NCBI GenBank assembly: GCA_944377485.1
Contig: CALWFB010000005.1
Coordinates: 12,236-76,235 of the forward strand
DNA: 64,000 bases
DNA from: an uncultured Clostridia bacterium
Lineage (GTDB): Bacteria; Bacillota; Clostridia; Christensenellales; UBA1242
Direction: 5' to 3'
Shown: in pieces, positions 30,601 to 36,877 of the stretch
Layout of the letters: the number at the start of each line of letters is the position of its first letter
How positions within the stretch are numbered: position 1 is the first letter of the stretch
Program-made: the position numbers and the translations under genes
Notes under the pieces: model-generated
What the model saw: the letters and a program-made list of their open reading frames with translations, nothing else
Databases searched by the model: none
Told to the model about the DNA's origin: nothing

Positions 30601-30628
30601 AAAAAACTTCCTTAAATGGAAGTTTTTT
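30601..30628. terminator. bidirectional rho-independent terminator
   Basis: aacttcc-loop-ggaagtt flanked by an A-run and a T-run, between convergent genes. Confidence 0.7.
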
Positions 30629-30977
30629 ACATATCTAGGATTGTATTGATTGCAACTGTATTTGCAGATTTATAATCATCAATATCAGAAATTAGCGCAT
30701 ATACCTTATTTTCATTAATTCTATTCAAAAGACTCTTCATTAATGTTAAATAATCCATATATTCTTCACTATACTCTAATTTAGGACTGTTAGACTTTAA
30801 AATCATCTTTCTAAAAGCGCTTTTTCTTAACAATCTAAAATTAGCTTTTTGAATATAATTAATTTCTTTTTCAATTATAGATATAGTTTTATTGGTATCT
30901 TCTTGCACATTATAAATATTGCTAGCCAATTTCAATTTTCTCATAGATAATTTTCTTAACAAACTTGCTTTCGTCAT
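30627..30977 (-). CDS. hypothetical helical protein
   Basis: 116-aa ORF with no recognisable motif. Confidence 0.45.
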   Translation of the reverse strand: MTKASLLRKLSMRKLKLASNIYNVQEDTNKTISIIEKEINYIQKANFRLLRKSAFRKMILKSNSPKLEYSEEYMDYLTLMKSLLNRINENKVYALISDIDDYKSANTVAINTILDM

Positions 30978-31053
30978 AATTAAACCACCTTTATTATGTG
31001 TAGTATATTAGCACATCAATACAAATTTGTCAATATTGAAATTTTAATAAATA

Positions 31054-31278
31054 TTAATTATCTGAAATTCCTAAAATGTAATTGGCATCAGCACCTATAA
31101 CTTCACAAATGCGAGCCAATGTTTCTAATGATGGTAGTTTATTTGTTGTCCTATATTGACTAAGCAATGCAACATTTATTTCAACTGCTTTTGCAATATC
31201 CGTATATTTCATGCCACAATTCTCTAATTCTTCTTTTAATCTTGTTTTGATTAAATCTCTTCTTATCTTATTTTTCAT
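31054..31278 (-). CDS. small XRE-family HTH regulator (copy 1)
   Basis: 74 aa with a Cro/C1-type HTH (MKYTDIAKAVEINVALLSQYRTTNKLPSLETLARICEVIGADANYILG). The homologous part begins at Met17 of the track ORF. Confidence 0.85.
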   Translation of the reverse strand: MKNKIRRDLIKTRLKEELENCGMKYTDIAKAVEINVALLSQYRTTNKLPSLETLARICEVIGADANYILGISDN

Positions 31279-31346
31279 ATAAATATTATTGCCAAACGGG
31301 CAAAATATTACTTGACTTTTGCCCAACGGGAAAGTAAAATAATATT
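31279..31346. promoter_or_regulatory. 68-nt divergent control region with two palindromic operators and back-to-back promoters (module 1)
   Basis: O1 is TTGCC-AAACG-GGCAA (31289-31303) and O2 is TTGCC-CAACG-GGAAA (31319-33). For the + gene: TTGACT (31312-17), a 17-nt spacer, TAAAAT (31335-40), with the ATG 6 nt later. For the - gene: AATAAT (rc of 31285-90) lies 6 nt before its ATG. Confidence 0.65.
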
Positions 31347-31643
31347 ATGGATTGTAAAAATAAATTTTGTGTATATAATAGAAAATTAAAATGTATAAAA
31401 GATGAAATTTCAGTGAATAAGTATGGGCAATGCGCATACATTTTCTTACCAAAAGTTAAAACTTATTTTTCCGATGAAGAAAAACAGGACCATATTGATT
31501 GTTATAAAAATATATTATCCGATTTAAGTTTGGATTGGTATCTATACACTGAAAAATTAAAAATAGAAAATACTGAAATAAAATTAACAGATGAGGACAA
31601 TTTCAAAGATATTATCAATCGTTATTTTAACCGTCATCAATAA
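31347..31643 (+). CDS. small four-Cys protein, N-terminal DUF1540-like Cys motif (copy 1)
   Basis: MDCKNKFCVYNRKLKCIKDEISVNKYGQCAYIF shows the pattern C-x4-C-x-Y-N-x4-C-x3-E-I-S-V...C. It is divergent from XRE copy 1. Confidence 0.6.
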   Translation: MDCKNKFCVYNRKLKCIKDEISVNKYGQCAYIFLPKVKTYFSDEEKQDHIDCYKNILSDLSLDWYLYTEKLKIENTEIKLTDEDNFKDIINRYFNRHQ

Positions 31644-31854
31644 TTCCCAATATATAATTAGCATCTGCCCCAATAACTTCACAAATTGTAGAAAAATTTT
31701 CTATTGAGGGTAATTTTTTTCCACTTTTATATTGACTAAGTAATGCCACATTAATTCCAACAGCCTTAGCAATATCAATATATTTCAAACCACAATTTTC
31801 TAGTTCTTCTTTCAATCTTTTTTGTATTATTTCTCTTCTTAACTGTTTATTCAT
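31627..31854 (-). CDS. small XRE-family HTH regulator (copy 2, paralog of 31054-31278)
   Basis: 75 aa, roughly 70% identical by eye to copy 1 (LKYIDIAKAVGINVALLSQYKSGKKLPSIENFSTICEVIGADANYILG). Its 3' end overlaps the preceding + gene by 17 nt. Confidence 0.85.
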   Translation of the reverse strand: MNKQLRREIIQKRLKEELENCGLKYIDIAKAVGINVALLSQYKSGKKLPSIENFSTICEVIGADANYILGIIDDG

Positions 31855-31923
31855 ATGTATATTATTTACCAATGGGCAAAAAAATACTTGACGTTTACCA
31901 TTGGTAAACAATATAATATACAT
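31855..31923. promoter_or_regulatory. divergent control region with two palindromic operators (module 2)
   Basis: The operators are TTACC-AATG-GGCAA (31866-79) and the perfect palindrome TTTACCA-T-TGGTAAA (31894-908). For the + gene: TTGACG (31888-93), an 18-nt spacer, TATAAT (31912-17), with the ATG 6 nt later. For the - gene: AATAAT (rc of 31861-66) lies 6 nt before its ATG. Confidence 0.65.
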
Positions 31924-32208
31924 ATGAAATGTAAAAATTTATTTTGTGTATTTAGTAGAAGAAATGGTGAATGCATAAAGAAGTATATCTCCTTTGATGA
32001 AACAGGAATGTGTGAGCATATTTTTTATCCAGAAAGATTAAAAGGAATGCAAGACAGTTTAAAAGAATGTTATACAAAGGTTCCAAAAGGAATGGAAGGA
32101 CACCATTATAGACGTGAGATAATGTTGTATCTTCTAAACCAAGAACTCCGAGGAATCAAAAATTCAAGCAATCCAAAACAAGAAAAAGAAAATAAATCTC
32201 AACATTAA
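31924..32208 (+). CDS. small four-Cys protein, N-terminal DUF1540-like Cys motif (copy 2)
   Basis: MKCKNLFCVFSRRNGECIKKYISFDETGMCEHIF shares the Cys pattern with copy 1, while the C-terminal halves are unrelated. The homologous region starts at Met24 of the track ORF. Confidence 0.6.
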   Translation: MKCKNLFCVFSRRNGECIKKYISFDETGMCEHIFYPERLKGMQDSLKECYTKVPKGMEGHHYRREIMLYLLNQELRGIKNSSNPKQEKENKSQH

Positions 32209-32243: not shown

Positions 32244-32279
32244 CGCAAAAGCACTACGAACCTACTTTTGCGTTTTTTT
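32244..32279 (+). terminator. rho-independent terminator after the second Cys-rich gene
   Basis: cgcaaaag-loop-cttttgcg followed by ttttttt. Confidence 0.7.
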
Positions 32280-32308
32280 GTAAAAAAATTTTCAAAATTC
32301 TAATAAAA

Positions 32309-32662
32309 ACCTATTAATATAGGAAAAAGAGTAATGAGAGAAAACCTTTGGTAGTCGTCGAACATACAAAAAAAGAACCTATATCAAACATAAAAATATA
32401 AAATAATTAATTTATATAGTTATCATATCAATATTAACCATTAAAGAAAAATATTTAAAATAAATACCTATTGTTGGAAAGGAAGTAATGAAGGAAAACC
32501 TTTGCAAGGTGTTCCTTCATAGATGACGGGCAATCGCCCATAAATGAAAAAATCTCACTTTATAGTGATATTTTGATTAAAACGATAAAAAGTTTATCCT
32601 ATTTCAAAGGGGGAGTAATGAGGGGGAAAGACAGTTTTCCCCCTCATATAGTGTCGCAATAG
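32309..32662 (+). repeat. three dispersed copies of a CCTATT...GGAAAGGAGTAATGAGGGAAA repeat, each with an SD-like run, an ATG and (copies 2 and 3) a hairpin that pairs the ATG
   Basis: The ATGs are at 32334, 32488 and 32618, spaced 154 and 130 nt apart. Hairpins are atgaaggaa/ttccttcat (32488-32520) and atgagggggaaa/tttccccctcat (32618-32646). Confidence 0.6.
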
Positions 32663-32933: not shown

Positions 32934-33053
32934 GTTGATGGCAACTATCTATTTTCTCGGGTCGTCTCCAACCAAATATCTTCGACGTGTAAGAGCTTAA
33001 CTTTTGTGTTCGGAATGGGAACAAGTGGAACCTCTTAGCTATTATCACCATCA
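32934..33053 (-). rRNA. rrf: 5S ribosomal RNA
   Basis: The reverse complement reads tgatggtgataatagctaagaggttccacttgttcccattccgaacacaaaagttaagctctt...gttgccatca. The conserved CCGAACAC/GTTAAGC core and a terminal helix are present. Ends are accurate to about 5 nt. Confidence 0.88.
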
Positions 33054-33280
33054 TGGTACATTGAACATCAATTTTCATTGATTTAGAACAATGACAGCTG
33101 CATACTTCGGACATTTGACTTTTTGGCAAATTGCTATGCAATTATAGCCTTTTTAGTCAATGTCCTTCATTACTTCTTTTCCTTTTATCATAATATGATT
33201 ATTAAATAATGAAATAAGAAGACAACGAAGTAAATATAAATACCGTAATTTAGTCAAAAATCATTTCTCAAAAGGAAGGT

Positions 33281-36207
<2,927 letters not shown>

Positions 36208-36844: not shown

Positions 36845-36877
36845 TAAAAAAGAGATAAGCCCTATGGGCTTATCTCT
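36845..36877 (-). terminator. rho-independent terminator overlapping the stop codon of the 234-aa gene
   Basis: 12-bp stem agagataagccc / gggcttatctct. The last four codons form one arm, with a T-run on the minus strand. Confidence 0.75.

Follow-up and report, generated by a model that had tools for sequence, protein, structure and literature searches.

A tandemly duplicated XRE repressor-operator region with predicted leaderless messages in an uncultured gut Clostridia genome

The locus described here raises the question of how two pairs of divergent genes are controlled from the very short spacers that separate their start codons, and whether the messages of all four genes begin at the first base of the ATG. 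It lies in the window, which is the whole stretch of 64,000 nucleotides that was analysed, and a preliminary description of that stretch had proposed back-to-back promoters, two operators in each spacer and four leaderless transcripts, in a geometry reminiscent of the PR/PRM region of phage lambda.

Two head-to-tail copies of a divergent gene pair

The source genome is 1.02 Mb in size with a GC content of 30%, and the assembly is in 23 contigs. Its relatives bear the label of uncultured gut Clostridia, one of which is named Candidatus Onthoplasma. Direct reading of the sequence revealed two head-to-tail copies of one two-gene module at 31054-32208, each consisting of an XRE gene on the minus strand that is divergent from a gene on the plus strand for a small protein with four N-terminal cysteines (4-Cys protein). 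The four genes are:

31054..31278, minus strand: XRE1, gene for a 74-aa Cro/C1-type HTH repressor, module 1 (Pfam HTH_26, HTH_31, HTH_3)
31347..31643, plus strand: CYS1, 98 aa with an N-terminal C-x4-C-x7-C-x12-C domain, module 1, no Pfam match
31627..31854, minus strand: XRE2, 75-aa paralogue of XRE1 (70% identity), module 2
31924..32208, plus strand: CYS2, 94-aa paralogue of CYS1 (32% identity), module 2

For XRE1, the start codon (CAT at 31276-31278 on the minus strand) was settled from the conservation of the N-terminus and from stop codons lying upstream in homologues, and that of XRE2 is the CAT at 31852-31854. The opposed starts are 69 bp apart and the spacers are 68-69 bp long. A longer form of XRE1 beginning at a TTG (31326) and a longer form of CYS2 beginning at an ATG (31855) were both rejected, as each extension covers operators and promoters and is not conserved in homologues.

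The modules are neighboured by genes for an alpha/beta hydrolase and ORF116 and by 5S/23S rRNA genes. No phage context was found at the locus, where PHROGs matches were limited to generic HTH, and no restriction endonuclease or methyltransferase gene was found within the module or adjoining it. The product of ORF116 (30627-31033, 116 aa) has no family match, and the gene has its own promoter (TTGACA-17-TAATAT) and a Shine-Dalgarno (SD) sequence, AAGGTGG, 8 nt before the ATG; a homologue with 50% identity comes after the module in genome G006. The 23S and 5S rRNA genes are at 32936-36207 on the minus strand and a protein ORF begins at 36862. No 16S gene is present upstream of the 23S gene within the window, and the 16S tail was found on another contig (C9). 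The DNA from the module to the 5S gene contains repeat units with the core GGAAA(A/G)GAAGTAATGA(A/G)GGAA (32300-32660; L005/L024), and as one copy of this repeat also follows a solo XRE gene in genome G035, the position of the module beside the 5S end is syntenic.

XRE2 and CYS1 are convergent, and their 3' ends overlap by 17 nt (31627-31643), an arrangement also present in G006 (L002). Terminator scans found no terminator between CYS1 and XRE2 or between XRE2 and XRE1, hence transcription from each promoter must cross the opposite gene antisense, and antisense or collision coupling between the two modules is possible. One terminator-like structure was recognized, by direct reading and as an inverted repeat:

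32244..32279, plus strand: putative terminator hairpin after CYS2, CGCAAAAG-N13-CTTTTGCG followed by a T run

The scan missed this hairpin, the loop of which is longer than 8 nt. The scan also flagged 31289-31303, but this 5-bp stem lies inside the promoter-operator block, which is probably untranscribed, and it is not credible as a terminator.

The module is patchily distributed in the genus (13 of 64 genomes) and sits in an accessory stretch beside the 5S end. In genome G007 (L003/L038), the CYS1 orthologue has a premature TAG at codon 44 and the second XRE gene is reduced to a remnant, indicating that the module is decaying there. Patchiness, accessory location, tandem duplication and decay would all suit a toxin-antitoxin or defence-type pair, in which the XRE protein would be an antitoxin-repressor and the 4-Cys protein a growth-inhibiting effector that is kept off, and XRE also gave weak matches to the HTH part of RmrA and to CapH models. 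However, these matches are limited to generic HTH and the 4-Cys protein has no PADLOC match, so a defence or toxin-antitoxin annotation was not adopted. Furthermore, as the two genes are divergent and not co-transcribed, the usual stoichiometric coupling is absent, and a pair of this type was judged very improbable.

Promoters of the CYS genes

Each CYS gene is preceded by a promoter on the plus strand, with the following elements:

31312..31317, plus strand: CYS1 promoter -35, TTGACT (promoter score 10/12)
31335..31340, plus strand: CYS1 promoter -10, TAAAAT, 17 nt from the -35 and 6 nt (AATATT) before the ATG at 31347
31888..31893, plus strand: CYS2 promoter -35, TTGACG (promoter score 11/12)
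31912..31917, plus strand: CYS2 promoter -10, TATAAT, 18 nt from the -35 and 6 nt (ATACAT) before the ATG at 31924

Direct reading thus confirmed that in both modules the CYS ATG lies 6 nt after the -10 hexamer. In a promoter scan, the CYS2 and CYS1 promoters were the best two in the region (11/12 and 10/12), though the region as a whole is not enriched in promoter-like sites (15 versus 15.8 expected from shuffled sequences). Eight modules that carry a Cys gene were compared (two each in G000 and G006, and one each in G007, G035, G026 and G072). All eight, from six genomes of the genus, retain the -35, a spacing of 17-18 nt, a TAnnAT or TACAAT hexamer and an ATG exactly 6 nt after it. The 6-nt filler itself is variable, with AATATT, ATTAAT, ACTTAT, ATACAT, AATAAT and ATAAAT found among the modules. 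CTTGAC is conserved in five of six aligned orthologous modules, and the other, G007_m1, has CTTAAC. The background rate for a full promoter at such a gap is 3.3 per 1000 internal ATGs.

Nearly all of the 40 aligned members of the family have a Cys domain that starts at residue 3, indicating that the ATG is the true start. The orthologue of CYS1 among public proteins (P0001, 110 aa) has a called start 12 codons early, inside the promoter-operator block, which is a typical mis-call for leaderless genes. Conservation in the genus, together with the genome-wide peak described below, makes the leaderless reading very credible for the CYS genes, and on this comparative evidence their transcripts very likely start at the ATG.

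Leaderless layout across the genome

A total of 737 long ORFs were crudely called in the genome, and each distance from the end of a full promoter (a -10 matching at least 5/6 with A2 and T6, and a -35 matching at least 4/6 at 16-18 nt) to an early ATG was counted. A sharp peak was found, with 44 early ATGs at a gap of 6 nt and 18 at a gap of 7 nt, whereas neighbouring gaps gave 2-9. Full promoters at gaps of 6-7 nt precede 62 of the 737 long genes and 52 of 473 genes that are putatively first in their unit, and these counts are a lower bound because the promoter criteria were strict. Examples with a near-consensus TTGACA-17-(TGn)TATAAT promoter at a gap of 6-7 nt are found on contigs C2 (minus strand, 99756), C8 (minus strand, 15915) and C4 (minus strand, 13855).

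An SD-like motif was detected at 49% of first starts, against a background of 7%, and the normal anti-SD CCTCC is present in the 16S rRNA tail. Both SD-led and leaderless modes are therefore used by this organism. Neither an SD nor a leaderless promoter was found at 160 of the 737 long genes, suggesting that SD-less translation of leadered messages probably exists here as well. At the four starts of the two modules, a motif search for GGAG, GAGG, AGGA and GGTG upstream found none, in agreement with the preliminary description.

The leaderless layout serves at least 8% of long genes and is a habit of the organism that is not specific to the switch. The earlier idea that the layout was a design feature of the switch was consequently abandoned, given that 62 long genes share it and that normal leaders bearing AGGAGG-type SDs precede the genes for distant Cys-family members in Clostridia with a GC content of 45-62%.

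Genomes in which a Pribnow box lies 6-8 nt before many first-gene starts, alongside SD-led genes, have been placed in 'group C' by GeneMarkS-2 (PMC6028130). The gap counts here show this pattern, with -10 elements localised near starts and SDs at other genes, and the source genome thus resembles group C bacteria in its -10-to-start placement and in also having SD-led genes. However, group C consists mostly of Actinobacteria and Deinococcus-Thermus and includes only 36 of 1064 Firmicutes (3.4%) (PMC6028130), whereas the source genome is a reduced, 30% GC genome of an uncultured gut Clostridia lineage. Frequent leaderless transcription is also found in Deinococcus deserti (PMC4007540).

Operators and recognition helices

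Four putative operators were located, two in each spacer:

31289..31303, no strand: putative operator OL1, TTGCCAAACGGGCAA, overlapping the candidate XRE1 -10 by 2 bp
31319..31333, no strand: putative operator OR1, TTGCCCAACGGGAAA, filling the 17-nt spacer of the CYS1 promoter, centre 30 bp from that of OL1
31865..31879, no strand: putative operator OL2, TTTACCAATGGGCAA, hybrid with TTTACC and TTGCCC half-sites, dyad symmetry 4/6
31894..31908, no strand: putative operator OR2, TTTACCATTGGTAAA, perfect dyad in the 18-nt spacer of the CYS2 promoter, centre 29 bp from that of OL2

The four dyads share a single 15-bp register of 6-3-6, TTnnCC-N3-GGnnAA. The palindromes of the preliminary description were all found where it had placed them, but the mixed spacings assigned to them (N5, N4 and 7-1-7) were replaced by this one register, which fits all four. 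Its picture of back-to-back promoters with two operators per spacer was borne out, one operator lying in the spacer of the plus-strand promoter and the other on the XRE -10.

Two dyads of this quality occurred in about 2% of shuffled 68-69-nt spacers, and in orthologous spacers the dyads recur at offsets 11 and 41. Among 15 XRE homologues, a dyad begins at -55/-56 from the XRE ATG in nine and at -24 to -26 in eight (XRE1 and seven further homologues, with none scored for XRE2 or its G006 orthologue), and six have both. The homologues with dyads include loci that have no Cys gene and an XRE gene alone near a tRNA gene. In three such loci without a Cys gene (L027, L028 and L029, in G033, G074 and G005, respectively), twin TTAACC-N3-GGTTAA dyads are kept, and a tRNA gene with a promoter of its own lies ~150 nt from the XRE gene.

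Across the XRE family, the half-sites covary with the first residues of the recognition helix (helix 3), as follows:

helix 3 NVALLSQY: half-site TTGCCC or TTTACC
helix 3 TTSM and TGSL: half-site TTAACC
helix 3 DKSM: half-site TTGACC
helix 3 SHQT: half-site GCGCAC
helix 3 SHTN: half-site GTAGTT
helix 3 SPEM: half-site CTAACC

Such covariation is the signature expected of a repressor and its site, and points to the XRE proteins as the predicted ligands of these dyads. It also bears on whether the geometry of promoters, ATGs and palindromes could have arisen by chance in A-T-rich intergenic DNA, where -10-like hexamers occur at 2% of positions and where promoter-like sites in the region do not exceed the number expected from shuffled sequence. 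However, preservation of the full geometry around a variable filler in all eight modules, the sharp genome-wide peak at gap 6, and dyads at fixed offsets that change with the recognition helix make a chance origin extremely hard to credit.

The genome was searched for matches of at least 11/12 to the two half-site types, and seven were found, four of which are the operators above, with about 7.7 expected by chance. The other three are thus no more than chance would give, two of them being inside genes, and a wider regulon was rejected. As the remaining matches are at chance level, the XRE proteins seem to regulate only their own modules.

The difference in half-sites between modules (GC versus TA at positions 3-4) had been described as consistent with diverged operator-repressor specificities. 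The difference is kept in the orthologues in G006 and is therefore stable. However, XRE1 and XRE2 have identical recognition helices (NVALLSQY), and one of the four half-sites of module 2, in the hybrid OL2, is of the module 1 type, TTGCCC. Diverged specificity is thus not supported, and cross-talk between XRE1 and XRE2 is quite possible.

Promoters of the XRE genes

On the minus strand, a candidate -10 hexamer precedes each XRE gene:

31285..31290, minus strand: candidate XRE1 -10, AATAAT, followed by ATTTAT and the ATG, with the same hexamer and gap in the G006 and G007 orthologues
31861..31866, minus strand: candidate XRE2 -10, AATAAT, followed by ATACAT and the ATG

The AATAAT hexamer 6 nt before each XRE ATG was hence found as originally described, as was a poor -35 overlapping that of the plus-strand promoter. 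The best -35 for XRE1 is AAGTAA (31308-31313), which matches at 2/6 and overlaps the CYS1 -35 by 2 bp, and there is no extended -10. The sequence at 31850-31865 is a perfect reverse complement of that at 31913-31928, such that the starts of XRE2 and CYS2 both read ATAATATACATATGAA (16 nt identical).

The XRE family was compared using 15 genes from about 12 lineages. In five of the 12 lineages, a hexamer matching at 5/6 or better is found exactly 6 nt before the XRE ATG (AATAAT twice, CATAAT, TATAGT and TATTAT), and two further lineages have TAATAT at a gap of 6 or 7 nt. The frequency of five in 12 corresponds to P = 2.7e-6 against the intergenic background (-10-like hexamers at 2.07% of intergenic positions) and to 7e-4 against the 6.6% found at first ATGs. 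Two XRE homologues carry an SD, GGTGG in G026 and GGAG in G072, and in these the distal dyad lies at -68 to -70, a shift of ~13 nt that is about the length of a short leader.

An alternative is that only the CYS transcripts are leaderless, and that XRE transcription begins further upstream or enters by read-through from the adjacent module, with translation from short A/U-rich leaders that have no SD. Weaker matches to minus-strand promoters are present at 31373-31344 (TACACA-18-CATAAT) and 31935-31908 (TTTACA-16-TATTGT), read-through would meet no terminator between XRE2 and CYS1 or XRE1, and the 160 long genes with neither signal provide a probable precedent for SD-less leaders. In addition, promoters with only a -10 and a weak -35 are not enriched genome-wide at a gap of 6 nt, where 14 cases fall within the range of other gaps. 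However, the alternative promoters lack conservation and differ in offset between the modules, whereas the distance from operator to ATG is fixed in the XRE family and is longer, by the ~13 nt noted above, in exactly the two members that bear an SD. The -10-like hexamers at gap 6 in five of 12 lineages and the 16 nt shared by the XRE2 and CYS2 start contexts also argue against it, and leadered XRE messages were considered possible but rather unlikely.

Of the four leaderless transcripts that had been proposed, the case is therefore strong for the CYS genes, with eight of eight modules and the gap-6 peak behind it, and moderate for the XRE genes, where it comes from the five lineages and the fixed operators. 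Judged from these comparisons, leaderless XRE transcripts are slightly favoured, and the chances that all four transcripts are jointly leaderless appear about even.

The 4-Cys protein family

CYS1 and CYS2 share only the N-terminal C-x4-C-x7/8-C-x12-C domain, and their C-terminal halves are unrelated. A profile search with a cut-off of E<=1e-3 retrieved a family of 159 small proteins, the signature of which is MxCxNxFCIYxxxxxCxLxxISIDxxGxCxxCI. No HTH or other family match was found for CYS1 or CYS2 in Pfam, PHROGs, NCBIfam or PADLOC. The spacing of the cysteines resembles that of DUF1540 (PF07561), and any membership would lie below the Pfam threshold, as relatives reach only E values of 0.0025-0.3 to DUF1540, below the gathering cut-off. 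Assignment of the CYS proteins themselves to DUF1540 was rejected, given no match at E<=0.1 and an hhalign probability of 1.3%. A DUF1540 match is absent from the whole source genome and present in 40 of 60 other genomes that were sampled from the order.

AlphaFold models of CYS1 had mean pLDDT values of 46 and 55, which are too low for a fold search. Searches for relatives with solved structures gave no significant match for the Cys family, where vinculin was matched by chance at E 0.17, or for XRE1.

In one member from the representative protein library (P0047), the 4-Cys domain is fused to a Spo0A_C DNA-binding domain, and this fusion to a separate DNA-binding domain suggests that the Cys domain is a regulatory or sensing module that is not itself DNA-binding. 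Usable gene context was available for five distant members, three of which are encoded divergently from a small gene of the XRE or ribbon-helix-helix-like type. This recurrent pairing, the small divergent genes flanking shared operators and the resemblance of the Cys domain to a metal-binding knuckle would fit a lambda-like bistable switch with two repressors, in which the 4-Cys protein would be the analogue of Cro and bind the same operators in the opposite order of preference. However, the CYS proteins match no DNA-binding family in the four databases searched, one relative has its Cys domain joined to a separate Spo0A_C, and CYS1 and CYS2 show no relationship in their C-terminal halves, with unreliable structure models. 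A second repressor of this kind therefore seems quite improbable.

Proposed regulatory mechanism

Each 68-69-bp spacer is probably a self-contained repressor-operator unit that controls two divergent genes, whose messages are leaderless by habit of the organism. From the positions of the elements, their conservation and the covariation of operator with recognition helix, we infer transcription starts, binding, promoter competition and an order of operator filling as follows. A near-consensus promoter for the housekeeping sigma factor (TTGAC-17/18-TAnnAT) would start transcription at the A of the CYS ATG, giving an mRNA with neither leader nor SD. The XRE promoter would consist of a -10 only (AATAAT), most likely starting at its own ATG. 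The XRE protein (74-75 aa) has no sensor domain, and its dimer is predicted to bind the two TTnnCC-N3-GGnnAA dyads, the centres of which are 29-30 bp apart.

Repressor on the dyad in the promoter spacer (centre at about -21) would block the strong CYS promoter, and repressor on the other dyad (centre at about -18 from the XRE start, on the weak -10) would lead to negative autoregulation. As the two promoters share upstream DNA and have overlapping -35 regions, a polymerase bound at the strong promoter should keep the weak XRE promoter from being used. Occupation of the plus-side operator would then both silence CYS and free the XRE promoter, and a higher level of repressor would fill the second operator and cap its own synthesis. 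Direct activation of the type seen at lambda PRM is unlikely, since the centre of the far operator, at about -48 to -51, does not coincide with the -42 position used there.

A more elaborate reading is that each spacer is a bistable switch with one repressor and mutually exclusive leaderless promoters, that the two modules are wired as a cascade and that their products belong to an undescribed family of 4-Cys regulators. No second repressor of the Cro type would be needed, as the overlapping -35 regions would make the promoters mutually exclusive. The basis for a cascade would be mutual antisense transcription of CYS1 and XRE2, the common recognition helix and the half-site of module 1 type in module 2. 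This combination of proposals is unlikely.

Comparison with known systems

The PRM-derived cI mRNA of lambda is leaderless, and the lambda repressor activates PRM from -42 at a tripartite operator and has a C-terminal domain for cooperativity and cleavage. Like the lambda/434 immunity region, the modules have divergent back-to-back promoters sharing palindromic operators and a repressor of the XRE fold, and in both the repressor promoter is weak, with a message apparently beginning at the ATG, and the opposite promoter is strong and has an internal operator. The proposed likeness to PR/PRM held only loosely, however. The modules have two operators in place of three, and their repressor is an HTH only, with no C-terminal domain for oligomerisation or cleavage. 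Instead of an HTH protein of the Cro type, the partner gene encodes a 4-Cys protein, and both messages look leaderless rather than that of the repressor alone. The module starts are only 69 bp apart with overlapping -35 positions, the far operator is near -48 instead of -42, and there are no surrounding phage genes.

The controller (C) proteins of restriction-modification systems, e.g. C.AhdI and C.PvuII, are also small XRE-type HTH proteins with two operators upstream of their own gene (PMC2275141). Experimental mapping has placed the 5' end of their transcript at the first base of the start codon, and their promoter has a low basal rate that is raised by the C protein, with autoregulation dependent on concentration (PMC2275141). 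The XRE genes of the modules, with two putative operators upstream and a predicted start at the ATG, would fit this geometry. However, no endonuclease or methylase gene is linked to the modules, the operators are 29-30 bp apart from centre to centre, and the XRE gene, which is monocistronic, diverges from the gene that it would regulate.

A parallel in promoter logic is found on the Bacillus subtilis plasmid pLS20, where strong and weak divergent promoters overlap and Rco represses the strong promoter, and activates and then represses its own (PMC4207663). Competition between the overlapping Pc and Pr promoters has been demonstrated experimentally in that system (PMC4207663). The modules share with it overlapping divergent promoters of very different strength and a single regulator for both. 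Rco differs in being a tetramer that loops DNA between distant operators, and Pc lies far upstream of the conjugation operon and yields a leadered mRNA, whereas each module fits everything into 69 bp and has a single small gene as its target.

Significance

The two modules form a tandem duplicate of a textbook-style XRE repressor-operator switch, and messages starting at the ATG are common in this genome. This reduced lineage of gut Clostridia seems to use leaderless messages for a good share of its transcription units, a mode that a survey found to be rare among Firmicutes (PMC6028130). Leaderless starts are misplaced by gene callers, as in P0001, which was extended by 12 residues.

With 69 bp between start codons holding two promoters and two operators, the module is a clean and very small example of its kind, and the compact spacer could be a convenient system in which to study promoter competition, as well as leaderless translation in a Firmicute. 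The 4-Cys family, with 159 members that have no described function, is repeatedly paired with a small repressor, which makes it a reasonable target for a function screen.
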